A stretch of DNA of 64,000 nt from an uncultured Verrucomicrobiota bacterium (GCA_937860055.1 CALMBO010000014.1:25132-89131); one strand, 5' to 3'; shown: positions 16,758-55,010, counted from the stretch's first letter. Made by a program: numbers and translations. The notes: generated by a model not told the origin, from the letters alone.

Positions 16758-16816
16758 CCGTCCGCCTCCAGCATGATATGGCCATTGGGTTCGCCACCAG
16801 AAAGGCGTCCGCCTCG

Positions 16817-16850: not shown

Positions 16851-16919
16851 CAATCGGCCTCCAGAAGGCCCGAACCTATACGCGGTATAATCGAATAAGA
16901 AAACAAAAGGAGAAATATT

Positions 16920-17441
16920 ATGCCTAACTACTGCGAAAACCACTTAACCATCACAGGCCTTCGCAAGGACCTTGAAGTCTTTCGCGACAGCGCTGCTTTA
17001 CTAGAAGCGTCTTCCGAGGGTGATGAGGCTTCCCCCTTTTGCTTCAGCAAACTAGTGCCGGTCCCGGAACCCCTATTCGATATCAAGGATTATGAATACG
17101 ATTGGAAGGAGGAGCATTGGGGATGCCATCGGTCTGCAGAAGACGTCGATTGTTTCCTGTTCTGCGACGAAAATGGAAGAGGGCAGCTTGTCTATGAGTT
17201 CCTTACTCCCCGGTCGTGTCCTGTTAAGTTCATCGAGGGGATTTCGGCTAGATATCCGAACCTGACATTCTCCTTGATTGCCTTTATAGGGGAAGTCCAG
17301 TCTGCCGCGCTATATATCGCCCGTCGCGGCATCATATTTACCGAAATTGTGGGACATTACGAAGCGTCTCTGATGGATGATGCCTTTCAGGAAGGGCCGT
17401 ACACCTCATGGCGATTTATTCCGCCCCAGGAAGGCATCTAG
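16920..17441 (+). CDS. hypothetical protein, member 2 of the second paralogue pair
   Basis: RBS AAAGGAGAAA. An upstream GGTATAAT -10 lies at 16884-16891. Sequence blocks are shared with 16224-16757. Confidence 0.55.
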   Translation: MPNYCENHLTITGLRKDLEVFRDSAALLEASSEGDEASPFCFSKLVPVPEPLFDIKDYEYDWKEEHWGCHRSAEDVDCFLFCDENGRGQLVYEFLTPRSCPVKFIEGISARYPNLTFSLIAFIGEVQSAALYIARRGIIFTEIVGHYEASLMDDAFQEGPYTSWRFIPPQEGI

Positions 17442-17447
17442 CTGAAG

Positions 17448-17480
17448 GCCACCTGACCCATGCTCCGCACCCTCCAGCCC
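17448..17480. repeat. about 33-bp intergenic motif (copy 2)
   Basis: Matches 16817-16850 with a few mismatches and one indel. It starts 7 nt after the stop of the upstream gene. Confidence 0.6.
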
Positions 17481-17551
17481 CAAGCCCCCAGACGGACCTT
17501 TTCGAAAATCCACAACAGCGTTTAGGTGGTTCCGGAGGCTGAAAAAGGCCG

Positions 17552-19317: not shown

Positions 19318-20313
19318 ATGGGTTACAGTTTACACCACAGGGGATATTATTCCGACGTGAAGGGGCAGGAGTTCGCGCGTCGCGCGATCGAAGTGGCGGT
19401 GGCCGGTGGCCACAATATCCTCCTGGTGGGGCCGCCGGGCACGGGGAAATCCATGCTGGCCAAGCGGGTGCCGACGATCCTGCCGCCGCTGGGGCTGGAA
19501 GAGGCGCTGGAGACGACGAAGATCCACAGCATCGCGGGGGTGCTGCCGGCGCACCAGGCGGTGGTGGGGGGTCGGCCGTTCCGGTCGCCGCACCACACGA
19601 TTTCCGATGCGGGGCTGCTGGGCGGCGGCACGCATCCGCTGCCCGGCGAAGTCAGCCTGGCGCACAACGGGGTGCTGTTCCTTGACGAGCTGCCGGAGTT
19701 CCACCGCAACGTGCTGGAGGTGATGCGCCAGCCGCTGGAGGATGGCGTGGTGTCCATTGCGCGCGCGGCGGCTTCGGTGACGTTTCCGTGCCGGTTCATG
19801 CTGGTGGCGGCGATGAATCCGTGTCCGTGCGGGCATTTCGGGGATGCGAAGCGGGAATGCCGGTGCACGCCGGTCCAGATGCAGCGCTACCGAAACCGGA
19901 TTTCGGGGCCGCTGCTGGACCGCATCGACATCCACGTCGAGGTGCCGGCGATGGAATACCAGCAGCTGGCGTCGCTGGAGAAGGGGGAGTCCTCTTCGCA
20001 GATCCGGGAGCGGGTGGTGGCGTCGCGGGCGGTTCAGCGGGAGCGGTTCGCCAAGGGCCGGGGGGCGCATGCGATCCACTGCAACGCGGGGATGCGGGCC
20101 AAGGACGTGCACAAGCACTGCATGCTGGACGATGCGGCGCAAAGCCTGCTCAAGGCCGCGATGGCCGACCTGCACCTGAGCGCCCGCGCCTATGACCGGA
20201 TTTTGAAGGTAGCCCGGACGATCGCGGACCTGGCGGGGGAGGGCGACATTGCCGCCGACCATGTCGCCGAGGCCATCCAGTACCGCTCCCTGGACCGGCA
20301 ATACTGGACCTGA
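19318..20313 (+). pseudogene. comM: comM (Mg-chelatase-like AAA+ competence ATPase), 3' fragment; 5' part displaced by element insertion
   Basis: The 331-aa ORF aligns to the ComM/YifB C-terminal two-thirds only, beginning at [29 protein letters not shown] (Walker A). The N-terminal domain of about 170-190 aa is absent. The first codons are AT-rich junction DNA, and the GC switch occurs at about 19350. Confidence 0.75.
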
Positions 20314-31261: not shown

Positions 31262-31708
31262 ATGAGCACAACGGTCGGCGATCTGTTGCGGATCAAGGGC
31301 GCGAAGGTGGAGACCATCACGGCGGCGGAGCCGCTGCTGGAGGCGATCCGGCGCATGAGCGAGAAGCACATTGGATGCCTCGCGGTGGTGACCCAGGCGG
31401 GCAAGCTGTCGGGGATCCTGTCCGAGCGCGATGTCCTGTGGAAGGTGGTCGCCGCCGGGGGATCGCCCAAGACGCACCGGGTCAAGGATGCCATGACGCC
31501 GCTGAAGCAGATGCATACGGTGTCGCCCTCGCAGACGGTGGAGGAATGCATGGGGCTGATCACCGCCGGCCGGCACCGCCACCTGCCCGTCCTGGCGGAC
31601 GGGAAGCTGGCCGGGCTGATTTCCATCGGTGACGTGGTGAAATTCATGCTGGATGCCCAGCAGTCGACGATCGACAGCCTGGAAAAATACATCACGGGGA
31701 CCTTCTGA
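31262..31708 (+). CDS. CBS-pair domain protein (copy 1)
   Basis: 148 aa with two CBS motifs. About 88-90% identical to 39356-39802. Directly upstream of hoxF. Confidence 0.8.
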   Translation: MSTTVGDLLRIKGAKVETITAAEPLLEAIRRMSEKHIGCLAVVTQAGKLSGILSERDVLWKVVAAGGSPKTHRVKDAMTPLKQMHTVSPSQTVEECMGLITAGRHRHLPVLADGKLAGLISIGDVVKFMLDAQQSTIDSLEKYITGTF

Positions 31709-31736
31709 GGGAAGGGGAGCCGGCGGAGAGCCTTCC

Positions 31737-33539
31737 ATGTCCTCCAGCATTGCGCAAACGGTGAAGACGGTCGTCTCCCGGTACGGCGGAGATGCAACGA
31801 GGCTGATGGACGTTTTGATCGACGTCCAGGATGAACTGGGCTGCCTGAGCCACGTGACGACGGCGCGGATCGCCCACACGCTGGGCGTGCCGCAGGTGGA
31901 CGTGGAACAGACGGTTTCGTTCTACCATTTCTTCGCGCGCGAGCCGCGCGGGAAATTCGCGGTCTATCTCAACGACAGCGTAGTGGCGGAATTCTGCGGC
32001 CGCGGGGAAGTCGCGCGGGCCTTCGAGGAGGCCGCGGGGTGCCGGTTCGGGGAAGTGACGGCCGACGGCGTCGTCGGGCTGTTCCATACGGCGTGCATCG
32101 GAATGAGCGACCAGGAGCCGGCGGCGCTGGTCAACGGGCAGGTGTTTCCGGCGCTGACGCCGGACAAGGCCCGCGAACTGGTCGCGGGCATGCGCGCCGG
32201 GAAAACGGTCGAGGAGCTCAAGGGCGGCCGGACCGGCGATGGCCAGAACGCCCATCCCCTGGTCCGGGCGCTCGTGCATAACCACATCCGGCGCCGGGGG
32301 GTGATGGTGTTCGACCACTACCAGCCCGGCGAGGCGCTGCGGAAAGTGGTGGCGATGAGTTCCGGCGAGGTGATCGGCGTGGTCAAGGCCGCGAGCGTGC
32401 GGGGGCGGGGCGGCGCCGGATTCCCGACGGGCATGAAGTGGGATTTCGCCCGCCGGGCGGCCGGCGACGTGAAATATGTTTTTTGCAACGCGGACGAAGG
32501 CGAGCCGGGGACCTTCAAGGACCGCGTCATCCTGACGGAGCGGCCGCAGATGGTGATCGAAGGCATGGCGATTGCGGCCTATGCCGTCGGCGCGCAGCGG
32601 GGGATCCTGTACGTGCGGAACGAATACCGCTATCTGCGGTCCTATCTGGAGCACGTGCTGGAGGACATGCGCGCGCAGGGACTGCTGGGCGCCGCGATCT
32701 GCGGCCAGTCCGGATTCGATTTCGACGTCAGCCTGCAGTTCGGCGCGGGCGCCTACGTGTGCGGAGAGGAGTCGGCGCTGATCGAGTCCGCCGAGGGCAA
32801 GCGCGGCGAGCCCCGGGACCGGCCGCCCTTCCCGGTGGAGAAGGGCTATTTGCAGAAGCCGACGGTGGTCAACAACGTCGAAACGCTGTGTTCGGCGGTG
32901 CAGGTGATGCTGAAGGGGGCGGAGTGGTACAACCGGCTCGGCACCGAGAAATCCAAGGGTACCAAGGTGCTGTGCGTGTCGGGCGACTGCGACCGGCCGG
33001 GCATCTACGAGGTGGAATGGGGCTTTTCGGTCAACGACATCCTGCAGGAAGCCGGCGCGCGGGACGTGCAGGCGGTGCAGGTCGGTGGGCCGTCCGGTTC
33101 GTGCATCGGGCCCGGCGAATTCGGCCGCGTGCTGGCCTACGAGGATCTGGCGACGGGGGGATCGTTCATCATCATCGGCCAGCCGCGCGACCTGCTGAAA
33201 GACGTGGTGCTGAATTTCGCCCGGTTTTTCCGCGAGGAGTCGTGCGGGTCGTGCGTGCCGTGCCGGGCGCTGACGGGGATGGCGCAGGTCGTGCTGGAGA
33301 GGGTCATCGCGGGCCGGGGCACGGCGGAAGACGTGGAGCGGCTGCAATCCTGGCAGAAGATCATGAGGAACAACCGCTGCGGCCTGGGCCAGACCGCGCT
33401 GAACCCGGTTGTCAGCACGATCCGGAACTTCCGGCCGCTGTATGACGCGCGGCTGGCGCCGGGCGATCCGCGGTTCGTGCCGGGGTTCGACCTGTCGGCG
33501 GCGGTGAAGGACTACGAGGCGGCGGTCTCGAAAGGATAG
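31737..33539 (+). CDS. hoxF: NAD-reducing [NiFe] hydrogenase diaphorase subunit HoxF (NuoE-like N-terminal domain fused to NuoF-like FMN/NAD/[4Fe-4S] module)
   Basis: GRGGAGFPTGMKW and NADEGEPGTFKDR (NuoF FMN/NAD motifs) and ESCGSCVPCR ([4Fe-4S]). The N-terminal thioredoxin-like domain retains only 2 of the 4 NuoE cysteines. Confidence 0.85.
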   Translation: MSSSIAQTVKTVVSRYGGDATRLMDVLIDVQDELGCLSHVTTARIAHTLGVPQVDVEQTVSFYHFFAREPRGKFAVYLNDSVVAEFCGRGEVARAFEEAAGCRFGEVTADGVVGLFHTACIGMSDQEPAALVNGQVFPALTPDKARELVAGMRAGKTVEELKGGRTGDGQNAHPLVRALVHNHIRRRGVMVFDHYQPGEALRKVVAMSSGEVIGVVKAASVRGRGGAGFPTGMKWDFARRAAGDVKYVFCNADEGEPGTFKDRVILTERPQMVIEGMAIAAYAVGAQRGILYVRNEYRYLRSYLEHVLEDMRAQGLLGAAICGQSGFDFDVSLQFGAGAYVCGEESALIESAEGKRGEPRDRPPFPVEKGYLQKPTVVNNVETLCSAVQVMLKGAEWYNRLGTEKSKGTKVLCVSGDCDRPGIYEVEWGFSVNDILQEAGARDVQAVQVGGPSGSCIGPGEFGRVLAYEDLATGGSFIIIGQPRDLLKDVVLNFARFFREESCGSCVPCRALTGMAQVVLERVIAGRGTAEDVERLQSWQKIMRNNRCGLGQTALNPVVSTIRNFRPLYDARLAPGDPRFVPGFDLSAAVKDYEAAVSKG

Positions 33540-33552
33540 GGAGGAGCGAGCC

Positions 33553-34248
33553 ATGGCCAGCTTTGTCCGGTACACGCTTGACGGCAAGACCTGCCTGGCG
33601 GAGGAGGGCACGCAGCTGGTCGCGGCGGCGCGGGACTCGGGGGTGTACATTCCGACGCTGTGCAACCATCCCGGAATCCCTCCCAAGGGTTCGTGCCGCA
33701 TCTGCACGGTGCTGGTCAACGGGATTCCCCAGACCGCCTGCACGACGAAGGTGGTCGAAGACATGAACGTGACGACGGGCACGCCGGAGCTGGAGGCGTT
33801 CCGCAAGGCGGTTGTCGAGATCCTGTTCGCGGAGGGAAACCATCTGTGCCCGTCGTGCGAGCGCAGCGGCAACTGCGAGCTGCAGGCGCTGGCGTACCGC
33901 TACCGCGTGACGGTTCCGCACTTCCCCTATTTGTTTCCGAAGCGCGACGTGGAGGCGTGGCATCCGAAGCTCGTCAAGGACCACAACCGGTGCATCCAGT
34001 GCAAGCGCTGCATCCGCGGCATCCACAACGCGGAAGGCAAGGCCCTCTTCGCTTTTGGAAAGCGCGGCGACAAGGTGGTCATCAACATCGACCCGGACAC
34101 CTCGCGCGACATCGGCGACGAGCTGGCGCAGCAGGCGATGGACATCTGCCCCGTCGGGGCGATCCTGCGGAAGGGCAAGGGCTTCGACGTGCCCATTGGC
34201 CGGCGCCGGTACGACCGGGAGCCCATCGGGAGCGAGGTGAAGCCATGA
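33553..34248 (+). CDS. hoxU: hydrogenase diaphorase subunit HoxU ([2Fe-2S] plus [4Fe-4S] ferredoxin; NuoG N-terminal-like)
   Basis: CNHPGIPPKGSCRIC and CPSCERSGNCELQ, CIQCKRCIRG, and CPVGAI cluster motifs. Confidence 0.85.
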   Translation: MASFVRYTLDGKTCLAEEGTQLVAAARDSGVYIPTLCNHPGIPPKGSCRICTVLVNGIPQTACTTKVVEDMNVTTGTPELEAFRKAVVEILFAEGNHLCPSCERSGNCELQALAYRYRVTVPHFPYLFPKRDVEAWHPKLVKDHNRCIQCKRCIRGIHNAEGKALFAFGKRGDKVVINIDPDTSRDIGDELAQQAMDICPVGAILRKGKGFDVPIGRRRYDREPIGSEVKP

Positions 34249-34814
34249 CCGCGAAGGCGCCCCGGGCCAGGAAGATCGTCGCGACGACCTCGCTGGCCGG
34301 CTGCTTTGGCTGCCACATGTCGCTGCTCGACATCGACGAGCGGATCCTCGACCTGATCGAGCTGGTGGAATTCAACAAGTCGCCGATCGACGACATCAAG
34401 ACGTTCACCAAGGAATGCGACATCGGGCTGATCGAGGGGGGGTGCTGCAATGACGAGAACGTGCACGTGCTGACGGAATTCCGCCGGCACTGCAAGACGC
34501 TGGTGGCGTTCGGGGAGTGCGCGTTGATGGGCGGGCTGCCGGCGCTGCGCAACTTCCTTCCGCTGAAGGAATGCCTGGAGGAGGCGTACTTGAACGGGCC
34601 GACGGTGGCCGGCGAAAACCCGGGGAGGATCATCCCGCACGATCCCGACATCCCGAAGATCCTGAACCGCGTCTATCCCTGCCACGAGGTGGTGAAGATC
34701 GACTACTTCCTGCCCGGTTGCCCGCCGAGCGCGGACCTCATCTGGGACGCGCTGGTCGCCCTGGTGACCGGCAAGGAGCTGGAACCGCAATACCGGACCT
34801 TCAAATTCGACTGA
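34245..34814 (+). CDS. hoxY: [NiFe] hydrogenase small subunit HoxY
   Basis: ATGA overlap with hoxU. Small-subunit proximal-cluster cysteines present (GCFGCHMS, GGCCND, GECA..GG, and PGCPP). Confidence 0.85.
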   Translation: MTAKAPRARKIVATTSLAGCFGCHMSLLDIDERILDLIELVEFNKSPIDDIKTFTKECDIGLIEGGCCNDENVHVLTEFRRHCKTLVAFGECALMGGLPALRNFLPLKECLEEAYLNGPTVAGENPGRIIPHDPDIPKILNRVYPCHEVVKIDYFLPGCPPSADLIWDALVALVTGKELEPQYRTFKFD

Positions 34815-34822
34815 GAGCCGCC

Positions 34823-36277
34823 ATGACCCGCAAAATCGTCATCGAACCCGTCACGCGCGTCGAAGGCCATGGCAAGGTCACGATCCACCTCGACGACGAA
34901 GGGAATGTCGCGCAGAGCCGGTTCCACATCGTGGAATTCCGCGGCTTCGAGCGGTTCGTGCAGGGGCGGCCGTACTGGGAGGCGCCGGTGCTGGTGCAGC
35001 GCCTGTGCGGCATTTGTCCGGTCAGCCACCATCTGGCCGGGGCGAAGGCCATGGACGTCGTGGTCGGCGCGGGGACGGGGGAGGGGCTGACGCCCACCGC
35101 CGAGAAGATCCGCCGCCTCATGCACTACGGACAGATCTTCCAGTCCCACTCGCTGCATTTCTTCCACCTGGCCTCGCCCGATCTCCTGTTCGGCTACGAC
35201 TCCCCGCCCGAGACGCGCAACGTGATCGGCATCGCCATGGCGAACCGCGAACTGGCGACGCAGGCGGTCCTGATGCGCAAATACGGGCAGGAGGTCATTG
35301 CCGCCACCGCCGGCAAGAAGATCCATGGCACGGGCGCGGTTCCCGGCGGCGTGAACAAGAGCCTGACCGCCGAGGAGCGCGACCGCCTGCTCAAGGGGGA
35401 CGGCGGGCCGCTCAACGCCGGCCAGATGGTCGCCTGGGCGCAAGGCGCGCTGGAGCTCTTCAAGGATTACTACCGGAAGCACAAGGACTTCATCGACCGA
35501 TTCTCCTCCTTTCCCTCGAACCACCTGAGTCTGGTGCGCAAGGACGGCGCGCTCGACCTCTACCACGGCGTCCTGCGCGCCGTGGACGCGAACGGAAAGC
35601 GGATCCTGAACGACGTGGACTACCAGGAATACCTCCAGCATCTGCGCGAGGAGGTGAAGTCCTGGAGCTACATGAAGTTCCCGTTCCTGAAGGCGCTGGG
35701 GAGGGAGAACGGCTGGTACCGCGTGGGTCCGCTTGCGCGGCTCAACACGGCCGACTTCATCCCGACCCCGCTGGCGCAGAAGGAATTCGAGGGCTACAAG
35801 GCTGCCACGGGCGGCAAGCCCAACAACATGTGCATGCACACGCACTGGGCCCGGCTGATCGAGATCCTCCATGCCGCCGAAAAGATGCGCGAGCTGCTGC
35901 AGGATCCGGACATCCTGGGCGGCGACCTTGTCGTGAAGGGCCGGCGGCAGCCCGAGGGTGTTGGCATCATCGAGGCTCCGCGCGGCACGCTGATCCACCA
36001 CTTCAGGGTCGGCGAGGACGACCTGATCCAGATGGCGAACCTGATCGTCTCCACCACGCACAACAACGAGCCGATGAACCGCGCCGTGAACGGCGTCGCC
36101 CGCTCGATGCTGACGAAGGCCAGGGAAATCACCGAAGGCATGCTCAACGCCGTCGAAGTGGCGATCCGGGCCTACGATCCGTGCCTGAGCTGCGCCACCC
36201 ATGCCTACGGACGGATGCCGCTGGAGGTTTTGCTCTATGACGACCGGGGCCAGCTCCTCGCGCGCCGGCGGAAATAG
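34823..36277 (+). CDS. hoxH: [NiFe] hydrogenase large subunit HoxH
   Basis: N-terminal RVEGHG and RLCGICPVSH (RxCGxC), and C-terminal DPCLSCATH (DPCxxCxxH) Ni-Fe ligands. Confidence 0.9.
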   Translation: MTRKIVIEPVTRVEGHGKVTIHLDDEGNVAQSRFHIVEFRGFERFVQGRPYWEAPVLVQRLCGICPVSHHLAGAKAMDVVVGAGTGEGLTPTAEKIRRLMHYGQIFQSHSLHFFHLASPDLLFGYDSPPETRNVIGIAMANRELATQAVLMRKYGQEVIAATAGKKIHGTGAVPGGVNKSLTAEERDRLLKGDGGPLNAGQMVAWAQGALELFKDYYRKHKDFIDRFSSFPSNHLSLVRKDGALDLYHGVLRAVDANGKRILNDVDYQEYLQHLREEVKSWSYMKFPFLKALGRENGWYRVGPLARLNTADFIPTPLAQKEFEGYKAATGGKPNNMCMHTHWARLIEILHAAEKMRELLQDPDILGGDLVVKGRRQPEGVGIIEAPRGTLIHHFRVGEDDLIQMANLIVSTTHNNEPMNRAVNGVARSMLTKAREITEGMLNAVEVAIRAYDPCLSCATHAYGRMPLEVLLYDDRGQLLARRRK

Positions 36278-36734: not shown

Positions 36735-39152
36735 TCAGGTGTCGAGGATCTGCCTCACCTTGGTGGACAATTCCAGCATGGTGAAGGGCTTCTGGATGAA
36801 GTTCACCCCGTCGTCGAGAACGCCATGGCGGGCGATGATGTCGGCGGTATAGCCGGAGATGAAGATGCACTTGAGATGGGGGTGGGTGGCGAGGACGTGT
36901 TCGGCGAGTTCGCGGCCATTCATCTCGGGCATGATCACATCGACCATCAGCAGGTGGATGGCTTCGGAGTGCTTCTGGGCCAGCTGGATGGCTTCGCCCG
37001 GAGTGGCGGCATCGAGGACCCGGTAGCCGAGCTTTTCCAGCATGCTCTTGCCGAGGGCGAGGATGGCGGGTTCGTCTTCCACCAGCAGGATGGTTTCCCG
37101 GCCCTCGGCCCGCCGGCCGGCCAGGCCATTGGGTTTCGGAGCTTCGGCTTCGACCGCATGCCGGGGCAGATAGATCCGGAAGGTGGAGCCATGGCCGGGT
37201 TCGCTGTCCACGTCGATATAGCCGTTGTTCTGCTTGACGATGCCGTAGACGGTGGCGAGGCCCAGGCCGGTTCCCTTGCCCATGGCCTTGGTGGTGAAGA
37301 AGGGTTCGAACAGCTTCCCGAGGGTGGTCTTGTCCATGCCTTCGCCGGTGTCGCAGACCGAGAGCATGACGTAGTCGCCCGGTTGGGAGCCGTGATGCGC
37401 GGCGCAGAAAGCTTCGTCGAAGCTGATGTTGGCCGTTTCGATGGTGATTTTCCCGACGCCGTGGATGGCATCGCGGGCATTGACGCACAGGTTGGTGAGG
37501 ATCTGGTCGATCTGGGAGGGGTCCGCCTTCACCGGGTCGAGATCCAGTCCCGGCCGCCAGACGAGATCGATGTTCTCCCCGATGAGGCGGCGGAGCATGT
37601 GGAGCATGCCGTCCACGGTGGTGTTCAAGTCGAGCACACGGGCGAGGATGGTCTGCTTGCGGGCGAACGCCAGCAACTGGCGGGTCAGGTCCGCGGAGCG
37701 TTCGGCGGCCTTGCGGATTTCCTTGAGTTCGGCGTGGTGGGGCTGGCCCAGGCCGGTATCCTCCAGCAGCAGCTCCGTGTAGCCGAGGATGGCGCCCAGC
37801 ATGTTGTTGAAGTCGTGGGCGACTCCGCCTGCCAGCCGGCCGACCAGTTCCATCTTCTGGGCCTGCGCCAGCTGGGCCTGGAGGCGGTCCTGCTCCTCCT
37901 CGGCCCGCTTGAGGCTGGTGATGTCGGTGTGCAGGCCGACCAGCCCCAGGATGCGGCCTTCGGGATTCTGGATGGCGTAGGCCCTCAGGAGGATGTCCAG
38001 GATGGTCTTGTCCTTCTTGAACATTTTGACTTCGCCCTGCCAGTTTCTTCCCGCCTTGATCGCGGCGAAGACCTGGTGTCCGACTTCGGGGTCCACATAG
38101 GCGGTTTCGCAAGGGTTTTCGCCGACGTCGCCGAACAGGTTGCCGAAGGCCCGGTTCTGGTAGAAGTGCTTTCCGGCGGGTGTGGCCATCCCGATGGCGT
38201 CGGAGGAGTCCTCCACCAGTGCCTTGAACAGGTGCAGTTCCTCGTTCCGCGCCTTGAGCTCGCGCGTTCGGAGGGCCACCTGGCGTTTCAGCAGGAGGCT
38301 GCCGAGGAGGCTCAGCAGCAGGAGGGCGGCGAGCAGGGGGCCGGCAACCTTGAGCCAGGCGGGGAAAATGAATTCCAGCTCTTCGGAGGTCCATCGCTGC
38401 AGGGAAAGATAGTACACGGAAGACCGGTCGCGCTTCATCTCCGCCAGGTGCTGGTCGAGGGCGTTGAGGAGGAAGCGGCGGCCCGTCTTGGGCGTTGCGA
38501 AGTACAGGCGCGTAGGGCTGAAGATGATCGCGGTGTCCTCCAGCGGGCCGCCCCGGGGCTGGATGGCGCCATAGAAGCGGTTGGCGACCACCGCGTCCAC
38601 CTCGCCCTTGGTTACGGCGGCAAAGGCGGACGGATAGTCCGGCATCGGCACGACGACGACGTTCAGCTCGAAGCCGCTGGCCATGTTTTCGAAGACGGAC
38701 TGCTGGATCGAGCCTTCGAGCACGGCCAGCCGCTTGCCGTCCAGGTCCACCAGGGACCGGATGCCGCACCCGCGCCGCGCATAGATCTGGAACCAGTCCG
38801 ACAGCACCGGTTCGTGATGGAAGGCATAGCGGGTTTCGCGTTCGACCGTGAACGCGACATCGGGCATGAGATCGATTTCACCCTTGGCCAGCCGATCCAG
38901 GCATTCGACCCAGGTTCCCGGCACGTATTCGATCGCCCAGCTCTCCTTCGCCGCGATGTCCTCGATCAGGTCGACAAAGATGCCGAGAGGGCGCCCGGAT
39001 TCGGACCAGGCCACCTTGGGGATGTTCTGGTAGAGGCCCACGCGGATGGGGGTCTTGACGTTCTGGGCGTAGACGGAGAAACATGCCAACCCGGCCAGGA
39101 GGCTGAATCCGCCAATCGAAGCCCATGCGAACTTCTTCAAACGAGTGCCCAT
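36735..39152 (-). CDS. hybrid sensor histidine kinase: periplasmic solute-binding-protein-like domain, TM, PAS, HisKA, HATPase_c, C-terminal REC
   Basis: H-box [15 protein letters not shown] boxes ([15 protein letters not shown]). A receiver block (ILLVEDEP...[11 protein letters not shown]...K). The N-terminal SBP_bac_3-like region lies between a signal/TM segment and a second TM. Confidence 0.85.
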
Positions 39153-39355
39153 TTCATGGAAGAGGTTATCGCAAACCGATGGAGGAAACAAGTCGGGAGA
39201 AGACCTTGTTGCATTTTATCCGGAGGCCCTCCGCCGGGTGCTCTTTCCTCCCTTCTGGGGCGGGAAATGGGGCGTTGACGGAAACAGGGGGAGGGGAATA
39301 AAGTTCCCCACGGCGAATTATCATCTGCGAATCCCAACCGGAGGAAGAAGCGATC

Positions 39356-39802
39356 ATGAGCACGACAGTCGGCGATCTGTTGCGGATCAAGGGTGCGAAG
39401 GTGGAGACCATCTCGGCGTCGGAGACGATCCTGGAGGCGATCCGGCGCATGAGCGAGAAGCACATCGGCTGCCTTGCGGTGGTGACCCGGGCGGGCAAGC
39501 TGTCGGGGATCCTGTCCGAGCGCGATGTCCTGTGGAAGGTGATCGCCGCGGCGAAGTCGCCGAAGACGAACCGGGTGAAGGACGCGATGACGCCGCTGAA
39601 GCAGATGAAGACGGTATCCCCGTCCCAGACGGTGGAGGAGTGCATGGCGCTGATGACGGGGCGGCGGCATCGCCACCTGCCGGTGCTGGCGGACGGGAAG
39701 CTGGCGGGGCTGATTTCCATCGGCGATGTGGTGAAATTCATGCTGGATGCCCAGCAAGCGACGATCCAGAGCCTGGAAAAGTACATCACAGGGACGTTCT
39801 AG
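39356..39802 (+). CDS. CBS-pair domain protein (copy 2)
   Basis: About 88-90% amino-acid identity and about 90% nucleotide identity to 31262-31708. Directly upstream of the [FeFe] hydrogenase genes. Confidence 0.8.
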   Translation: MSTTVGDLLRIKGAKVETISASETILEAIRRMSEKHIGCLAVVTRAGKLSGILSERDVLWKVIAAAKSPKTNRVKDAMTPLKQMKTVSPSQTVEECMALMTGRRHRHLPVLADGKLAGLISIGDVVKFMLDAQQATIQSLEKYITGTF

Positions 39803-39805: not shown

Positions 39806-40384
39806 ATGTCGGCGGCGGGGGGAAGCGGGGAAACGGGAGACGGAGCGATGACGAAGACCTGCACGTGCGCCTGCGCGGAAGCCGCGCCGGACGAAAAAGA
39901 GCTGATGGGACGGCTGGAGGAAGTTCTGGCCGAGCAGAAAGACAAGCCGGGCGGATTGATTCCGGCGCTGCAGACGGCGCAGGCCATTTTTGGATATCTG
40001 CCGGAAAATGCGCTGCGGCGGGTGGCGCAGGCCTTCGACAAGTCGCACAGCGAGGTGGCGGGGGTGGTCTCGTTCTACTCGTTCTTCTCGACGGTGCCGC
40101 GCGGCAAGTACCTCGTCCGCGTCTGTCTGGGCACGGCATGCTATGTGCGCGGCGGCAACGAAGTGCTGCGGGCGATGAAGGACAAGCTGGGGATCGACGT
40201 GGGCGGGACGACGCCGGACCGCCAGTTTTCGCTGGAAGTGGGCCGTTGCTTCGGCGCCTGCGGCATGGCGCCGGTGCTGATGGTCAACGACGACCTGCAC
40301 CAGCGCGTCAAGCCGGCGAAGCTGGGCGAATTGCTGGAGAAATACCGCGCGCAGGCGGTGCCGGCGCAGGAGGCCAAGCCGTGA
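39806..40384 (+). CDS. hydC: NuoE-like thioredoxin-fold [2Fe-2S] subunit of [FeFe] hydrogenase (HydC/HndA-like)
   Basis: All four NuoE cysteines are present (CLGTACYVRG ... CFGACGMAP). The alternative start at 39848 has a better RBS. Confidence 0.8.
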   Translation: MSAAGGSGETGDGAMTKTCTCACAEAAPDEKELMGRLEEVLAEQKDKPGGLIPALQTAQAIFGYLPENALRRVAQAFDKSHSEVAGVVSFYSFFSTVPRGKYLVRVCLGTACYVRGGNEVLRAMKDKLGIDVGGTTPDRQFSLEVGRCFGACGMAPVLMVNDDLHQRVKPAKLGELLEKYRAQAVPAQEAKP

Positions 40385-43300
40385 CCAGGCATCTGAAGAA
40401 GATCGAATCGGGCGAAGCGCTGGCGGCCTGGCGGGACCAGCTGCGCAAGGCGGAAAAAACCGCGCAGGAAGTGCGGATCTGCATGGGCGGCAGCTGCCTG
40501 GCGTCGGGCGCGCCGGAGATTGCGGCGGCGTTCCGGAAGGAGCTGGCGGCGGCCGGGCTGGCGGAAACGGTCGCGGTGCGCGCGGCCGGCTGCATGGGGC
40601 CCTGCGTGCGCGGGCCGGTGCTGCGGCTCGGCGATGGAACCTTCTACCAGGGCGTGAAGCCCGAAGACGCGGCGGAAATCGTCCGCGAGCATCTGGCCGG
40701 CGGTCGCGTCGTGGACCGGCTGATCGCCCATGACGAGGCCGGCGGCAAGCCGCAGGCGACCGACGGCGAGATTCCCTTTTTCACGAAGCAGACGCAGATC
40801 GTGCTGCGCAACTGCGGGCACATCGATCCGGAACGGATCGAGGAGTACGTCGCGCGCGACGGCTACGCGGCGCTGGCGAAGGTGCTGGGCGGGCTGAAGC
40901 CCGAACAGGTGGTCGAGGAGATGAAGGGCTCCGGCCTGCGGGGGCGCGGCGGCGCCGGTTTCCCGACCTTCATGAAGTGGGAGTTCACCCGGCGGGCGCC
41001 GGGCGAGACGAAATACGTGCTGTGCAACGCCGATGAAGGCGATCCGGGCGCCTACATGGACCGCAGCGTGCTGGAGGGCGATCCGCACAGCGTGATCGAA
41101 GGCATGGCGATCGCGGCTTTCACCATCGGAGCGGTGCAGGGCTATGTCTACGTGCGCGCGGAGTATCCGCTGGCCGTGGCGCGGCTGAAGAAGGCGATCG
41201 AGCAGGCCCGCGCGTGCGGGTTCCTGGGCAAGCACGTGCTGGGAACGGATTTCCATTTCGATCTCGACATCCGGATGGGCTCCGGCGCGTTTGTCTGCGG
41301 CGAGGAGACGGCGCTGATCGCGTCCATCGAGGGATTGCGGGGCGAGCCGCGGCCGCGGCCGCCGTTTCCGGCGCAGAAGGGGCTGTGGGGCAAGCCGACG
41401 GTGCTCAACAACGTGGAAACCTACGCCAACGTGCCGGCGATCCTGCTGAACGGCGCGGCCTGGTATGCGAAGTGGGGAACCCCCAAGAGCAAGGGGACGA
41501 AAGTCTTCGCGCTGGCCGGCTGCGTGAAGAACACGGGGCTGGTGGAGGTGCCGGTGGGAACCTCGCTGGGCGAACTGATTTACGACATCGGCGGCGGCAT
41601 CCGGGGCGACAAGGCCTACAAGGCGGCGCAGATCGGCGGGCCGTCGGGCGGCTGCATTCCGAAGCAGAACCTGAACGTGCCGCTGGACTACGAAAGCCTG
41701 CAGGAGCTGGGCGCGATCATGGGTTCGGGCGGCCTGATCGTGATGGACGAAGACACCTGCATGGTGGACGTGGCGCGGTTCTTCATCGAGTTCGTGCAGG
41801 AGGAATCCTGCGGCAAGTGCGTGCCGTGCCGGGTGGGCACGAAGCGCATGGGCGAGATCCTGCAGCGCATCTGCGACGGCGACGGGGAGATGGCGGACAT
41901 CGAGCGCCTCGAGAAGCTGGGGGCGTTCATCAAGGAGTCGTCGCTGTGCGGGCTGGGGCAGACGGCGCCGAACCCGGTGCTGTCGACGATCCGGCATTTC
42001 CGCGAGGAATACGTGCAGCACATCCGCGACAAGCATTGCGCGGCGGGCGTGTGTCCGGCGCTGGTGCTGGCGCCGTGCCTGAGCGCATGCCCGGCGGGAG
42101 TGCAGGTGCCGGGATTCGTCTCGCTGGTGGGGGAGGGCCGCTACGCGGAGGCGCTGAAGCTGCACCGCGAGCGCAATCCGTTCGCGGCCATCTGCGCGCG
42201 GGTGTGCTTCCACACCTGCGAAGACCACTGCCGGCGCAGCTCGCTGGACGCGCCGGTCGCGATCCGCGGCATCAAGCGCTTCATGGTGGACCAGGAAGTG
42301 ACGATCGTGAAGCCCGCGGTGCTCGAGAACGCGGCCAACGCGGCGCGCAAGGTGGCGATCGTCGGCGCGGGTCCGGCGGGGCTGACCTGCGCGTATTTCC
42401 TGGCGCGGCTGGGATACAAGCCGGTCGTCTACGAGGCCGAGCCGCGGCCGGGCGGCATGCTGGTGCAGGCCATTCCGGCCTACCGGCTGCCCCGCGAGAC
42501 GCTGGCGCGCGAGATCCGCATGATCGAATCGCTGGGCGTCGAGATCAAGACCCTCCAGCGGCTCGGCAAGGATTTCACGCTGCCGAAGCTGCGGGAGGAC
42601 GGTTGCGAGGCCGTTTTCCTGGCGGTGGGCGCGCCCGAGGGGCTGGGACTGGAGCTGCCGGGCAGCGATGCCAAGGGCGTGGTGGATTCGATGGATTTCC
42701 TGCGGCAGTACAACATCCGCGGTTCGGCGCCGGTGGGCAAGGACGTCGTGGTGATCGGCGGCGGCAACGCGGCGATCGACGCGGCGCGGACGGCGCTGCG
42801 GCTGGGGGCGGAGCGCGTCACGGTGGTCTATCGCCGCACGCGCGAGCAGATGCCGGCCTATGCCGAGGAAATCGAGGAGGCGCAGCAGGAAGGCGTGCAC
42901 CTGCGGACGCTGTGCGCCCCCGAGAAATTCGAGGTTGAAGGCGGGAAGATCACCGGGCTGGTTTGCCGGCGGATGACGCTGGGCGATTTCGACCGCAGCG
43001 GGCGGCGCAAGGCGCAGGCCGGGGACGATTCGGCGATGGAGACGATCCCCTGCGACCAGGCGATCCTGGCGATCGGGCAGCGGCTCGACGCGAAGGCGGT
43101 GCTGGGCAAGGTCGAGGCGGCGGTGGCCGGCGGCTGGATCCAGGCCGATCCGACGACGGGCCGGACGGCGGTGCCGTGGCTGTTCGCGGGCGGCGACGCG
43201 GTCACGGGGCCGTCGTCGGTGGTGGAAGCCATCGCCGCGGGCGAACGCGCGGCGGTCGGCATCGATGCGATGCTGACGGGCGCGGAGCATGCCTTCTGGC

Positions 43301-43515
43301 GCGGCTATCCCGACGTGCCGACGGACTACGATCCGGAGGCGGATCCGGTGCCGTATCCGCGCGAGGATCCCAACCTGATCGAACTGGAGCGGCGGAAGAA
43401 CAACTTCGACGAGGTCGAGCAGCCGTGGAACGAAGCCACGGCGCGGCGGCAGGCGCGGCGGTGCCTGCGGTGCGACTACGGCAAGACCGGCAAGGTGAGG
43501 GGAGCGGCGACATGA
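40381..43515 (+). CDS. hydB: NuoF-like flavoprotein subunit (HydB) fused to a C-terminal GltD/NfnB-like FAD-NAD(P)H oxidoreductase domain
   Basis: GTG start overlaps the hydC stop. N-terminal thioredoxin-like domain. NuoF motifs GRGGAGFPTFMKW, NADEGDPGAYMDR and ESCGKCVPCR. Two extra [4Fe-4S] sites (CPALVLAPCLSACP, CARVCFHTCEDHC). Two Rossmann sites (VAIVGAGPAGL, VVVIGGGNAAID). Length about 1044 aa. Confidence 0.85.
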   Translation: MTRHLKKIESGEALAAWRDQLRKAEKTAQEVRICMGGSCLASGAPEIAAAFRKELAAAGLAETVAVRAAGCMGPCVRGPVLRLGDGTFYQGVKPEDAAEIVREHLAGGRVVDRLIAHDEAGGKPQATDGEIPFFTKQTQIVLRNCGHIDPERIEEYVARDGYAALAKVLGGLKPEQVVEEMKGSGLRGRGGAGFPTFMKWEFTRRAPGETKYVLCNADEGDPGAYMDRSVLEGDPHSVIEGMAIAAFTIGAVQGYVYVRAEYPLAVARLKKAIEQARACGFLGKHVLGTDFHFDLDIRMGSGAFVCGEETALIASIEGLRGEPRPRPPFPAQKGLWGKPTVLNNVETYANVPAILLNGAAWYAKWGTPKSKGTKVFALAGCVKNTGLVEVPVGTSLGELIYDIGGGIRGDKAYKAAQIGGPSGGCIPKQNLNVPLDYESLQELGAIMGSGGLIVMDEDTCMVDVARFFIEFVQEESCGKCVPCRVGTKRMGEILQRICDGDGEMADIERLEKLGAFIKESSLCGLGQTAPNPVLSTIRHFREEYVQHIRDKHCAAGVCPALVLAPCLSACPAGVQVPGFVSLVGEGRYAEALKLHRERNPFAAICARVCFHTCEDHCRRSSLDAPVAIRGIKRFMVDQEVTIVKPAVLENAANAARKVAIVGAGPAGLTCAYFLARLGYKPVVYEAEPRPGGMLVQAIPAYRLPRETLAREIRMIESLGVEIKTLQRLGKDFTLPKLREDGCEAVFLAVGAPEGLGLELPGSDAKGVVDSMDFLRQYNIRGSAPVGKDVVVIGGGNAAIDAARTALRLGAERVTVVYRRTREQMPAYAEEIEEAQQEGVHLRTLCAPEKFEVEGGKITGLVCRRMTLGDFDRSGRRKAQAGDDSAMETIPCDQAILAIGQRLDAKAVLGKVEAAVAGGWIQADPTTGRTAVPWLFAGGDAVTGPSSVVEAIAAGERAAVGIDAMLTGAEHAFWRGYPDVPTDYDPEADPVPYPREDPNLIELERRKNNFDEVEQPWNEATARRQARRCLRCDYGKTGKVRGAAT

Positions 43516-45287
43516 TCCACGTCACGATCAACGGCAAGGCGATCGAGGTTGCCGAAGGGTCCACGATCCTGCAGGCGGCGAAATCGGCGGGCATCCAGAT
43601 CCCGACGCTGTGCTTCCTGGAGAAGCGCGAACCCGTCGGCGCGTGCCGGGTGTGCCTGGTGGAGGTGGAGGGGGCGCGGACGCTGGTGGCGTCGTGCTCG
43701 ACGCCCTGCACGGAAGGCCAGGTGGTGCATGTCAACAGCCCCAAGGCGCGCGCGGCGCGCAAGCAGGTGGTCGAGCTGCTGCTGTCCGAGCACGACGGCG
43801 ACTGCCAGACCTGCGAGCGCAACGAGGACTGCGAGCTGCGGAAGCTGGCCAGCGACATGGGGATCCGGACGGTGACCTACGGCGGGAAGCGCGCGGCGGC
43901 GCATCTGGACGAGAGCACGCCGGGGCTGGTGCGCGACAATTCCAAGTGCATCAAATGCCGCCGGTGCGTAACGGTCTGCAACCAGGTGCAGGGCGTCGGC
44001 GCGCTGTTTCCTCAGGGCCGCGGCTTTTCCACGGTGATCGGGCCCGCGTTCGCGGCCGACCTGGCGGGCGTGACCTGCGTGCAGTGCGGCCAGTGCGCGG
44101 CGATCTGCCCGGTGGGGGCGATCACCGAGCGCAGCGCCATCGACGCCGTGTGGGCGGCGCTGGACGATCCGTCCAAGACGGTGGTGGTCCAGACCGCGCC
44201 GGCGATCCGCGCGGCGCTGGGCGAGGAATTCGGCTATCCGCCCGGCACGCGCGTGACGGGCAAGATGACGACGGCCCTGCGCCAGATGGGGTTCGACGCG
44301 GTGTTCGACACGAATTTCGCGGCCGACCTGACCATCATGGAGGAAGGCACGGAGCTGCTGACCCGCCTGAAACGGGCCCTGGTGGACAAGGACAAGACGG
44401 CGGCGCTGCCGATGTTCACGAGCTGCTCGCCGGGGTGGATCCAGTTTGCGGAGTACTACTATCCGAACTTCCTCGACCATCTGTCCACCTGCAAGTCGCC
44501 GCAGCAGATGTTCGGCGCGGTGGCCAAGACGTTCTACGCGCAGAAGATCGGCAAGAAGCCGGAAGACCTCGTGGTGGTGTCGGTGATGCCGTGCACGGCG
44601 AAGAAGTTCGAGGCGCAGCGGCCCGAGATGAACGCCAGCGGCGCACGCGACGTCGATCATGTCCTCACCACGCGCGAGCTGGCGCGGATGATCCGGCAGG
44701 CGAACCTGGCATTCACGGAGCTGCCGGACGGCGAGATGGACGCGCCGCTGGGTCTCTCCACGGGCGCGGCGGACATCTTCGCGAACACGGGCGGGGTGAT
44801 GGAAGCGGCGTTGCGCACGGCCTACGAGATCGTGACGGGGCGGGAGCTGCCGGTCGAGAACCTGCATGTGAAGCCCATCGAGGGGCTCGACGGCATCAAG
44901 GAGGCGTCGCTCAAGATCGAGCGGACGCAGCCGGCGTGGTCGTTCCTGGAAGGAGTCGAGCTGAAGGTGGCGGTGTCGCACGGGCTGGGCAACACGCGGA
45001 AACTGCTGGAAAAAATCCGGTCCGGCGATGCGAGCTACCATTTCATCGAAGTGATGACGTGTCCCGGCGGCTGCATCGGCGGCGGCGGTCAGCCGCGGTT
45101 CACGGACGACAGCGTCCGCCTGAAGCGCATCTCGGCGATTTATGCGGAGGACGAGTCCAAGAAGCTGCGCAAGTCGCACGACAATCCGGCGGTGCAGGAG
45201 CTCTACAGGGAATTCCTCGGCAAGCCGCTGGGGCACCGGTCGCACGAACTGCTGCACACGGGCTACCGCGCGAAAGAGCGCCGCTGA
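43512..45287 (+). CDS. hydA: [FeFe] hydrogenase catalytic subunit HydA (M3-type: [2Fe-2S], His-ligated [4Fe-4S], 2x[4Fe-4S] ferredoxin, H-domain)
   Basis: H-cluster motifs L2 MPCTAKKFE and L3 EVMTCPGGCIGGGGQP are canonical. L1 reads TSCSPGW instead of TSCCPxW. N-terminal ferredoxin clusters present. ATGA overlap with hydB. Confidence 0.9.
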   Translation: MIHVTINGKAIEVAEGSTILQAAKSAGIQIPTLCFLEKREPVGACRVCLVEVEGARTLVASCSTPCTEGQVVHVNSPKARAARKQVVELLLSEHDGDCQTCERNEDCELRKLASDMGIRTVTYGGKRAAAHLDESTPGLVRDNSKCIKCRRCVTVCNQVQGVGALFPQGRGFSTVIGPAFAADLAGVTCVQCGQCAAICPVGAITERSAIDAVWAALDDPSKTVVVQTAPAIRAALGEEFGYPPGTRVTGKMTTALRQMGFDAVFDTNFAADLTIMEEGTELLTRLKRALVDKDKTAALPMFTSCSPGWIQFAEYYYPNFLDHLSTCKSPQQMFGAVAKTFYAQKIGKKPEDLVVVSVMPCTAKKFEAQRPEMNASGARDVDHVLTTRELARMIRQANLAFTELPDGEMDAPLGLSTGAADIFANTGGVMEAALRTAYEIVTGRELPVENLHVKPIEGLDGIKEASLKIERTQPAWSFLEGVELKVAVSHGLGNTRKLLEKIRSGDASYHFIEVMTCPGGCIGGGGQPRFTDDSVRLKRISAIYAEDESKKLRKSHDNPAVQELYREFLGKPLGHRSHELLHTGYRAKERR

Positions 45288-52123: not shown

Positions 52124-54475
52124 CTAGTTGGCGGAGCCGAGCAGGTGGTAGAGGAGATTGTTGGCGACGGCCTGGGGCAGGAGCAGGATGGAGCGGAAAA
52201 GCGGCGTTCCGTCGGGGCCTTCGGTGAAGTCGGCGGCTTCGGAATCGATGCGGAGGGTTCCCTCGCCCTTGAAGGTGCGGTGGGAGACGCGCACATCCCC
52301 CTTTTCGGGAATGGCGCGGCCGGTGACGAAGTCCATGACCTGGTTGACGGGGGAGAAGGACATCGGGGAGGCCTGGAGGGGGGGCGCGGGTTTTTCGTCG
52401 ATGAGCTGGACGGCGACGAGCTGATCCTCGCAATCGGTGATGAGGCGCAGGGTGGGATAGGGAGGCTGGCCGGGGCCGATGGCGCCGAGGCGTCCGGCAT
52501 GGAAGGTGTGCAGGAAGAAACCGCCATAGGGGAAGGGGGCGCCTTCGATGGGGATGCGGGGTTCCGCGGGTTTGACGCCCAGGGCGCGGCAGGCGTCGGC
52601 GAGGGGCATGAGCCAGGTGAGGGGGCCGTGGATGTACAGGCCGGCTTGTGCGCGGGTGTCGGGGCTGGATTCGGCGATGGCGGAGAGGAGGAAGATGAAT
52701 TCGGAGGTTTCGGGGCGGTCGACGGGGGCGGGGAGGGTGTCCCAGGCATAGCCGAATTGCATGTGGCGCGGGGCGAAGCTGTCGGCGGGATCGAAGGCCG
52801 GCGTGGGATAGGGGGCGAGGGTGGGATGGCGTTTCTTGGGGGCGAGGGCGAAGAGGTTCTTCTTGTCCTTGAGCGTCAGGCGGGCGCGGCGGGCATCGTT
52901 GGCGAGCTGGTAGCATTGGTTGGCGTAGAGGGCGATGGGGACGTTGCGGGGGGCCTGGGGGCGGATGGTTTCGAAGAGGAGCGCGGCGTATTGGGCGTCG
53001 GAAACGATGGCGACAAGGCCGGGATCCTGCGGGTCGGGGGTCTTGAGATGGGACTGGTAGGCGGCCAAGGTCTGGTTGAAAAGGTTGGCGGCCTGGATGA
53101 AGCCCGGATGGTTCCATGCGCCGGGCGTGACGGTGTTGGCGCTGGCGGAGAGCGGTTCGGGCTCGGGCGGGAGCCCGGGTTCGGCGGCGGTGGCGGATGC
53201 CGGAGTGGTTGCGGCGGCGGCCGTGGCCGTGGAGGAAGCCGCGGTGGTTTCTCCCGCCTCGTGGACGGTGCCGCCAATGATGGGTGCGGGGACCTGGCGA
53301 CCCGGCCGGACCGGCTTGCCGGAGAAGGCGGCCTTGATCTGGGCGACGCGCTCGGGATGGCTCCTGAAGGCGAAGAACCACAGGGCGGCAAGCACGCCGG
53401 CCAGGAACAGAAGGAAGAACAGGAAATGCAGGAAACCCCCGCCGCCGGACGAGGCGGCGGCCGAGGCGGAGGGCCGCTTGGTCTTGCCGATGAGGGCTTC
53501 CGAACCGGAGAGGGTGATGGCCTTTTTGGCGGCGGCGGAGAGGTTGAGGGTGTTGGCGCGGGCGCCGGGCCGATGGCGGGGGTTGAGGAGGATCGTGCTC
53601 TCGTCATCGGCGGGATAGGGCGGAAGGGGGGATTTGCCGGACTGGATCTGGTGGATGTCCTTGAGGACGTCCGTCCAGGAGACGGGACGCTTGGCGGGAT
53701 CCTTGGCGGTCATCTTGGCGAGGAGCCAGCCATAGGAGACGGGCAGGTGGGGGAGGATTTCGCAGGGGTCGGGGAGGTAGTCGGTCTGCTGGGCGTCGAG
53801 GATGGCGTCGAGCGAGCGGCCCTCGAAGGGGGGCGTTCCGGTGAGGAGATGGTAGATGGTGAGACCGAGGGAATAGATGTCGGTCCGGCAATCGGGTTCG
53901 CGGCCTTCGATCTGCTCGGGGGCGATGTAGGTGGGAGTGCCTTCGATGCTTTCGGAGGGTTCGCGGGTGGCGGCGGAACCGGCGATGCGGGCGAGGCCCA
54001 GGTCGGTCAGCTTGACGGCGCCGTCGGCGCCGAGAAGGATGTTTCCGGGCTTGATGTCGCAGTGGATCAGCGAGGTTTCGCGCCAGACGGTGTCGAGGGC
54101 GCCGGCGATGATGCCGGCCAGCTTGAGGACCTGCCCATGGGCCATGCGCTGGTTCCGGGCGAGCCAGTCGGCGAGATTGGTGCCGTCGACGTATTCCATG
54201 ACGTAGTAGAGCGTGCCCTCGTGCTCGCCGAAGTCGAGGATGCCGACGATGGCGGGGTGGGAGAGGCGGGCCGCGGCGCGGGCCTCCTTCTGGAACTGGA
54301 CGCGCGCCGCCTCGTCGGCAAGAAGGGTGTGCGAAAGGATCTTGATGGCGACGACGCGGTCGAGGGAGATCTGCCGGGCGAGCCAGACGGTGGAGGTGCC
54401 GCCGGCGCCGAGGGGGCGCAGGATTTCGTAGCCGGGCAAGGCGGGGGGCGCCGATGGACGGATCGCTTTTTCCAT
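52124..54475 (-). CDS. Ser/Thr protein kinase with TM segment and large C-terminal domain of unknown function
   Basis: HCDIKPGNILL, DLGLA and GTPTYIAPE Hanks motifs. TM helix (FLHFLFFLLFLAGVLAALWFFAF). Start at an internal Met; the longer ORF to 54781 has a low-complexity N-terminus. Confidence 0.8.
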   Translation of the reverse strand: MEKAIRPSAPPALPGYEILRPLGAGGTSTVWLARQISLDRVVAIKILSHTLLADEAARVQFQKEARAAARLSHPAIVGILDFGEHEGTLYYVMEYVDGTNLADWLARNQRMAHGQVLKLAGIIAGALDTVWRETSLIHCDIKPGNILLGADGAVKLTDLGLARIAGSAATREPSESIEGTPTYIAPEQIEGREPDCRTDIYSLGLTIYHLLTGTPPFEGRSLDAILDAQQTDYLPDPCEILPHLPVSYGWLLAKMTAKDPAKRPVSWTDVLKDIHQIQSGKSPLPPYPADDESTILLNPRHRPGARANTLNLSAAAKKAITLSGSEALIGKTKRPSASAAASSGGGGFLHFLFFLLFLAGVLAALWFFAFRSHPERVAQIKAAFSGKPVRPGRQVPAPIIGGTVHEAGETTAASSTATAAAATTPASATAAEPGLPPEPEPLSASANTVTPGAWNHPGFIQAANLFNQTLAAYQSHLKTPDPQDPGLVAIVSDAQYAALLFETIRPQAPRNVPIALYANQCYQLANDARRARLTLKDKKNLFALAPKKRHPTLAPYPTPAFDPADSFAPRHMQFGYAWDTLPAPVDRPETSEFIFLLSAIAESSPDTRAQAGLYIHGPLTWLMPLADACRALGVKPAEPRIPIEGAPFPYGGFFLHTFHAGRLGAIGPGQPPYPTLRLITDCEDQLVAVQLIDEKPAPPLQASPMSFSPVNQVMDFVTGRAIPEKGDVRVSHRTFKGEGTLRIDSEAADFTEGPDGTPLFRSILLLPQAVANNLLYHLLGSAN

Positions 54476-54566
54476 AGAAATCCATTTTGGACGAAATGCG
54501 CCGGAAAGGAAACTGCTAAATTGAGCGCTTGCCAAGGGGGGCGGTTTTCGGTGTGGTAGGCGGGCG

Positions 54567-55010
54567 ATGGACCGGATCACACGACAGGTCGAGACGAATT
54601 CGGCGGCGGAGACGCAGGCGCTGGCGGCGGAACTGGCGGCGGAAATGCCGCCGGGGACGGTGCTGTGCCTGCATGGCGACCTGGGCGCGGGGAAGACGTG
54701 CTTCGTGCAGGGGCTTGCGCGGGCGCTGGGGGTCCGGCGCCCGGTGGGGAGCCCGACGTTCACGCTGATCAACGAGTACAAGGGAAAGAAGCCGCTGGCG
54801 CATATCGACCTCTACCGCGTCCGGGGCGCCGGCGATGCGTTCGGGCTGGGGCTGGAGGACTACCTCTTCCATTTCGACGGCGTGGTGGCCATCGAATGGG
54901 CGGAGCGGGTGGCGGAGCTGCTGCCCGAAGAGTGCTGGCATGTGCGGCTGGAAGCGGGGACGGGCGAGGAGTCGCGGAGGGTAACGGTGGACCGCCCGGC
55001 GGCGGGATGA
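54567..55010 (+). CDS. tsaE: tRNA threonylcarbamoyladenosine biosynthesis ATPase TsaE (YjeE)
   Basis: LHGDLGAGKT Walker A and TFTLINEY blocks typical of TsaE. Length 147 aa. Confidence 0.8.
   Translation: MDRITRQVETNSAAETQALAAELAAEMPPGTVLCLHGDLGAGKTCFVQGLARALGVRRPVGSPTFTLINEYKGKKPLAHIDLYRVRGAGDAFGLGLEDYLFHFDGVVAIEWAERVAELLPEECWHVRLEAGTGEESRRVTVDRPAAG

Follow-up and report, generated by a model that had tools for sequence, protein, structure and literature searches.

The window analysed in this study is a stretch of 64,000 nucleotides from an uncultured Verrucomicrobiota bacterium (CALMBO010000014.1:25132-89131). It carries the [FeFe]-hydrogenase gene hydA (bfuA), the last gene of a tightly packed plus-strand set made up of a CBS-pair protein gene, hydC, hydB and hydA (Table 1). 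The putative GTG start of hydB overlaps the stop codon of hydC, and the ATG of hydA overlaps the stop codon of hydB. A few kilobases upstream lies a cluster for an NAD-linked Hox-type [NiFe]-hydrogenase, with a fused HoxE/F-like gene, a HoxU-like gene, a small subunit gene (Oxidored_q6) and a large subunit gene (NiFeSe_Hases). A hybrid SBP-PAS-kinase-REC gene separates the [NiFe] and [FeFe] clusters. The first ~18 kb of the window has a GC content of 50-53%, compared with 63-70% in the remaining part. This low-GC part contains a GP88-like gene, a D12-type methyltransferase gene and a radical SAM gene, and ends with a large serine recombinase gene beside a Mg-chelatase/ComM-like gene; a phage-like or mobile element has probably integrated here. 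The maturase genes hydE, hydF and hydG were not found among the window ORFs scanned.

Table 1. Positions of the hydrogenase operon, the motifs and cluster ligands of HydA, and other features of the window.
Feature	Position	Strand	Basis or remark
Low-GC part	1-19225		
Large serine recombinase gene	17552-19225		end of low-GC part
Mg-chelatase/ComM-like gene	19318-20313		
Ser/Thr protein kinase gene	28469-31090	-	
Hox-type [NiFe]-hydrogenase cluster	31653-36277	+	
Hybrid SBP-PAS-kinase-REC gene	36735-39191	-	
Promoter-like site	39275-39304		upstream of CBS-pair gene; weak consensus match only (promoter scan)
CBS-pair protein gene	39356-39802	+	Pfam CBS 9e-26; probably first operon gene
hydC (bfuC), NuoE-like thioredoxin-like [2Fe-2S] subunit	39806-40384	+	Pfam 2Fe-2S_thioredx 2e-47
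hydB (bfuB) fused to GltD-like module	about 40381-43515	+	Pfam, NCBIfam, translation; putative GTG start
hydA (bfuA), M3-type [FeFe]-hydrogenase catalytic subunit	43512-45287	+	591-aa ORF
L1/P1 motif TSCSPGW	44418-44438	+	in-frame translation of hydA
Cys305 codon TGC	44424-44426	+	ungapped alignment to CpI
Ser306 codon TCG	44427-44429	+	[4Fe-4S]H ligand position; alignment
L2 motif MPCTAKKFE	44586-44612	+	M359, Cys361 ligand
L3 motif EVMTCPGGCIGGGGQP	45048-45095	+	M515, Cys517 ligand, bridging Cys521
[2Fe-2S] ligands of HydA	C34/45/48/62		
His-ligated [4Fe-4S] ligands of HydA	H94/C98/101/107		
Ligands of two [4Fe-4S] clusters of HydA	C146-C199		followed by H-domain and small-subunit-like tail
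Ser/Thr protein kinase gene	52124-54781	-	

The domains Fer2_4, NADH-G_4Fe-4S_3, Fer4_7, Fe_hyd_lg_C and Fe_hyd_SSU were detected in HydA with Pfam, which corresponds to the full M3 architecture. As in group A catalytic subunits, the H-domain (PF02906, 6e-97) is accompanied by a small-subunit-like C-terminus (PF02256, 1e-25). The score against TIGR02512 was 527 bits (cutoff 406), and that against NCBIfam NF040763 (NADH-dependent [FeFe] hydrogenase, group A6) was 881.2 bits (curated cutoff 765); the NCBI records of HydA orthologues bear the NF040763 name. The best PDB match was 7q4v_A, HydA1 of A. woodii (5.5e-189, 50% identity over the full length), and the top Foldseek matches, 8a6t_A and 7q4w_A, are HydA subunits of HydABC complexes. 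The AF2 model is of moderate confidence (pLDDT 71) and confirms the fold only, holding no cofactors or metal geometry. Every F-cluster ligand and every remaining H-cluster residue is intact. HydA retains the relay Cys305, the proton-path residues E278, E281, R285 and S325, and also M359 and M515. The L2 and L3 motifs are canonical, as the preliminary description of this DNA had stated, and the flanks ALPMF and IQFAEYYYP were found as it gave them.

In the frame of hydA, the codons acg agc tgc tcg ccg ggg tgg encode T303-S304-C305-S306-P307-G308-W309. The motif TSCSPGW had been read correctly from the codons, and the coordinates first assigned to it, 44410-44430, overlap the motif but are shifted 8 nt upstream of the true 44418-44438. 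Against PDB sequences (phmmer), the stretch from PMF to the Trp is gap-free in the pairwise alignments with CpI, T. kivui HydA1 and A. woodii HydA1. The region reads LPMFTSCSPGW in HydA, FPMFTSCCPGW in CpI, FPMFTSCCPSW in T. kivui HydA1 and LPMITSCSPGW in A. woodii HydA1. Cys305 is the equivalent of CpI Cys299, whose role as proton relay is summarised in the literature (PMC11376134). Ser306 falls in the column of CpI Cys300, T. kivui HydA1 Cys299, A. woodii HydA1 Ser301 and CrHydA1 C115, and the numbering of Ser301 and Cys299 obtained from the alignment agrees with the published one (PMC10021017). The ungapped alignment to CpI Cys300 confirms the earlier placement of the Ser at the cubane-ligand position, and the underlying assignment of roles, with the first Cys as proton relay and the second as cubane ligand, is in agreement with the literature. 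HydA has a variant of the L1 consensus TSCCPxW, which we counted as an L1 motif; the published P1 definition xTSCxPxW admits TSCSPGW (PMC11406978).

The survey of orthologues showed that the Ser is kept throughout, and no Cys was found in its place. In the public assembly collection, 12 contigs, each from a separate assembly, encode a protein identical to HydA. TSCSPGW was present in all of the 120 closest database proteins (74-94% identity), and [TS]SCSPGW was present at 80 of 80 orthologous loci in species-representative genomes (67-94% identity). It was also present in L001, a source-type contig with the identical protein that was counted apart from the 80 loci. These loci span about ten phyla, including Kiritimatiellia, Verrucomicrobiota, Lentisphaerae, Planctomycetota, Fibrobacterota and Omnitrophota, and they also include Myxococcota, Hydrogenedentota, Thermoleophilia, Bacteroidales and Spirochaetota. 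Among 28 aligned orthologues the L1 motif was invariant, with both Cys305 and Ser306 conserved. Five kinds of Ser codon (TCG, TCT, TCC, TCA and AGC) were used at the 80 orthologous loci. The identical protein on 12 contigs, the complete retention of Ser in proteins and loci, and the synonymous codon variation together indicate purifying selection on the Ser. In place of the first cubane Cys, Ser306 is a natural alternative that has become fixed under selection.

The TSCSPGW variant is already known, common, conserved and ordinary. Di Rienzi et al. (2013) mentioned TSCSPGW for Melainabacteria, and a literature search on TSCSP returned only this passing remark. According to Kertess et al. (2017), Ser occupies the position of CrHydA1 C115 in about 20% of putative HydA sequences (PMC5855289). 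According to a 2024 report in mSystems, four of the five BfuA sub-types commonly have Ser as the fifth residue of P1 (PMC11406978). Katsyv et al. (2023) reported that Ser301 replaces the Cys ligand of the A1 cluster (Cys299Tk) in A. woodii HydA1 (PMC10021017). In this study, the frequency was tallied among HydA representatives of 50%-identity clusters, where xSCSPxW occurred in 27/129 (21%) by motif search and in 21/128 (16%) by alignment. About one in five HydA families has the variant, and published mentions of it go back to at least 2013-2017. One entry of the representative library, P0121, has a predicted length of 4122 aa and seven H-domains; the first six repeat every 444 aa, and the last is offset from this spacing and diverges more. 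Its L1 motif is TSCCA[SG]W, with Pro replaced by Ala. P0121 represents a giant polyprotein or tandem-array gene call, if it is not an artefact of assembly.

The A. woodii enzyme with TSCSPGW has normal FTIR signatures, and its activity is similar to that of the Cys-type T. kivui enzyme; the O-ligation by Ser301 comes from the cryo-EM model and not from cubane spectroscopy (PMC10021017). In the engineered CrHydA1 variants C115S, C115A and C115D, most of the [4Fe-4S] cluster was lost and the activity was gone; C115S had a low [4Fe-4S] occupancy, no 2Fe insertion and less than 1 U/mg (PMC5855289). The puzzle is that natural Ser enzymes build an active H-cluster, whereas engineered CrHydA1 C115S does not. 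Given the inactive C115S variant, tolerance of the Ser therefore depends on context. Cys327 (the CpI 321 position, in LSTCKSPQQ) was considered as a compensating ligand and rejected, because it accompanies TSCCP as well as TSCSP, and Ala stands there in several TSCSP families. Among 128 H-domains, no second-sphere column co-varied strongly with the Ser/Cys state. The best was Val248 (CpI~242 by the L1 offset), with a frequency difference of 0.44, closely followed by a Gly preference at position 302. On a crude NJ tree, Fitch parsimony needed 18 state changes to account for 22 Ser tips. The tree is too rough for counting origins; it only suggests that the Ser families do not form one clean clade.

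The NuoF-like hydB and the NuoE-like hydC are adjacent to hydA, as in trimeric HydABC systems of the T. maritima, A. woodii and T. kivui type. At its N-terminus HydB has a thioredoxin-like [2Fe-2S] domain; a NuoF core (FMN/NAD site, SLBB and [4Fe-4S]), Fer4_20 and Pyr_redox_2 follow. The last two, with two [4Fe-4S] clusters and an FAD/NAD(P)H site respectively, form a GltD-like module, which replaces the C-terminal 2x[4Fe-4S] ferredoxin domain (B3/B4) of canonical HydABC. HydB residues 30-562 match 7t2r_B and 7q4v_B in the PDB, and matches of HydB type stop at about residue 562. The best PDB matches of residues 564-1032 are 9bov_A, 8oh5_C and 9n5u_A, where the matching NADP(H) module belongs to the A subunits of Stn and Nfn-Bfu transhydrogenases. 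The closeness of the GltD part to these modules speaks in favour of NADP(H). The loop at the FMN site, CNADEGDPGA, is of the ADEGDPG type, which is associated with NAD use. The order hydC, hydB::gltD, hydA was kept at every orthologous locus with enough upstream DNA, across about ten phyla. The CBS-pair gene adjoins hydC in about 18/80 loci; its product shares 71-89% identity with those of the closest relatives and 41-50% with those of about ten distant loci of Kiritimatiellia, Verrucomicrobia and Lentisphaerae type. The CBS-pair protein may serve the hydrogenase operon as a nucleotide-sensing accessory. The GltD-fused HydB is more interesting than the Ser and has already been described bioinformatically. 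The HydB::GltD complex is widespread across phyla and known from genomes alone, and a literature search on Bfu, GltD and HydABC together returned no match.

Directly downstream of hydA lie FIST, PAS, PAS-GAF-kinase and REC genes, on the minus strand and convergent with hydA. These genes had been taken as a hint of a regulatory context. The linkage was tested with tblastn on 81 loci (80 orthologous loci and L001), and 47 of the 80 hold at least 12 kb. A FIST gene next to hydA was found at 0 of the 80 orthologous loci, including the 47 with at least 12 kb, and a match to the PAS protein near hydA was found at a single orthologous locus, L010. The small REC gene recurs near hydA only in relatives with at least 91% identity. 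Of the genes tested, FIST, PAS and the PAS-GAF kinase are not conserved beside the hydrogenase operon. Linkage of hydA to the FIST/PAS/kinase genes was therefore rejected, and the regulatory context fails with it: the gene set is present, but convergent and not conserved at orthologous loci. The neighbourhood is rich in signalling genes, since the window also contains two large Ser/Thr protein kinase genes (one encoding Cache/PDC sensor domains) besides several PAS, GAF and FIST genes. Four loci, from Omnitrophota and unclassified MAGs, carry a second gene of HydA type (L1 motif TTCCPSW) ~5.5 kb downstream of the TSCSPGW hydA (L047 at 9254, L055 at 13417, L058 at 13721 and L072 at 13397). Its product could be a HydS-like partner.

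Based on sequence, we consider it highly probable that the hydA product is a catalytically competent subunit of a cytoplasmic multimeric [FeFe]-hydrogenase of the HydABC/BfuABC type (group A3; 'A6' in NCBIfam) with an H-cluster bound by Ser306, in a Kiritimatiellia-like PVC bacterium. The H-cluster would be held by Ser306 as an O-ligand, Cys361, Cys517 and the bridging Cys521. Cys305 would stay the proton relay, and H2 would be split or formed at the H-cluster. By analogy with A. woodii HydA1, the H-cluster with Ser306 is presumably normal both spectroscopically and catalytically. Electrons would pass from the F-clusters of HydA to HydC and to HydB with its GltD-like 2x[4Fe-4S]/FAD/NAD(P)H module. 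NAD(H) would react at the FMN site of HydB, and NADP(H) probably at the GltD-like FAD. Because HydB carries the GltD-like module, the complex would couple H2/H+ to pyridine nucleotides.

Other explanations of the Ser have to be weighed against this assignment. That the codon is a sequencing or assembly artefact has practically no chance of being right. Nothing speaks for it except that the motif is rare in textbook alignments, and it is refuted by the identical protein on separate contigs and by the Ser in every orthologue surveyed, written with five codons. The preliminary description had itself argued that the change is no trivial error, TCG being two substitutions from a Cys codon (TGC or TGT), and both the argument and the codon distance hold. 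It is improbable that Ser306 is no metal ligand, so that Cys305 binds the cubane with a Ser or water relay, or three Cys bind it with an open or water-bound fourth site. Kertess et al. did suggest that Cys114 may substitute in CrHydA1 C115A, natural Ser ligation of a [4Fe-4S] cluster was then unknown according to the same authors (PMC5855289), and the cryo-EM resolution limits the certainty on the O-Fe bond. However, the A. woodii model assigns Ser301 as a ligand (PMC10021017), and the normal FTIR states of that enzyme, including HoxH and Hhyd, as well as its activity, need a working relay Cys. Relay mutants of the C299S type are inactive or abnormal in standard enzymes, and the orthologues keep Cys305 and Ser306 together without exception.

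A sensory or non-catalytic protein, or one with a strongly shifted bias, tied to the adjacent FIST/PAS/kinase/REC genes, is very improbable. Sensory HydS proteins (groups C/D) have a C-terminal PAS or signalling domain, and they have lost the relay Cys and the Met residues near the 2Fe site. HydA has M3 architecture, in which Pfam detected no PAS or other sensor domain, and the relay Cys305, the proton path, M359 and M515 are all kept. The signalling genes do lie directly downstream of hydA, and engineered ligand changes in CrHydA1 do shift the catalytic bias (PMC5855289). Against this, FIST is missing from all other orthologous loci, and the signalling genes lie on the strand opposite to that of hydA. 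hydA itself is coupled in translation to hydB and hydC, with which it forms an operon that is conserved across phyla. The identical motif also works in the active bifurcating A. woodii enzyme. The sensory or non-catalytic role proposed earlier thus finds no footing in the retained residues. As for the altered H-cluster proposed with it, the O-ligation matches the A. woodii cryo-EM model, but an altered cluster with a shifted bias is unsupported, FTIR and activity of the A. woodii enzyme being normal. The Ser variant matters little: it occurs often, is conserved and documented by structure, and proved functionally benign in the single enzyme tested.

Returning to a competent, Ser306-bound HydA, a further idea is that the Ser ligand adaptively tunes the [4Fe-4S]H potential of multimeric NAD(P)H-linked hydrogenases. 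It would act via second-sphere features absent from algal HydA1, in a complex whose GltD-like module would couple H2 to NAD(H) and NADP(H) without ferredoxin. We regard this idea as speculative and rather unlikely. If it is true, the complex would be a hydrogenase-transhydrogenase hybrid with two flavin centres that does not need ferredoxin.

The system can be compared with several known ones. HydA1 and HydABC of A. woodii (PDB 7Q4V, 7Q4W, 8A5E; PMC10021017) share the TSCSPGW motif, the M3 architecture, 50% identity, and a NuoF-like HydB with a NuoE-like HydC. The A. woodii HydB ends in a 2x[4Fe-4S] ferredoxin domain, whereas HydB here ends in the GltD-like FAD/NAD(P)H module, and the two organisms belong to different phyla. 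CpI of C. pasteurianum, the M3 prototype, has the same fold, F-clusters, L2/L3 motifs and proton pathway at about 41% identity; it has Cys300 where HydA has Ser306, and it is monomeric and ferredoxin-dependent. CrHydA1 C115S (PMC5855289) carries the same Cys-to-Ser exchange at the same position and is inactive, whereas the natural Ser enzymes are conserved, and active in A. woodii. Stn and NfnABC (Nfn-Bfu; PDB 8OH5, 9BOV, 9N5U) share the BfuB/BfuC-type core and the GltD-like NADP(H) module, but they are without an H-cluster, and their module is in the A subunit instead of at the C-terminus of HydB. Sub-type I BfuABC (PMC11406978) likewise has a BfuB with DPD_II and an FAD/NAD(P) domain in place of B3/B4, an M3a-type BfuA, and Ser commonly in P1. 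Its reported taxa, Kiritimatiellota, Verrucomicrobiota, Planctomycetota and Spirochaetota (PMC11406978), are those of the orthologous loci, and its published gene order is likewise hydC, hydB::gltD, hydA. There is no evident difference from this sub-type, which is known from genomics only; the locus described here is without BfuD and has a CBS-pair gene upstream.
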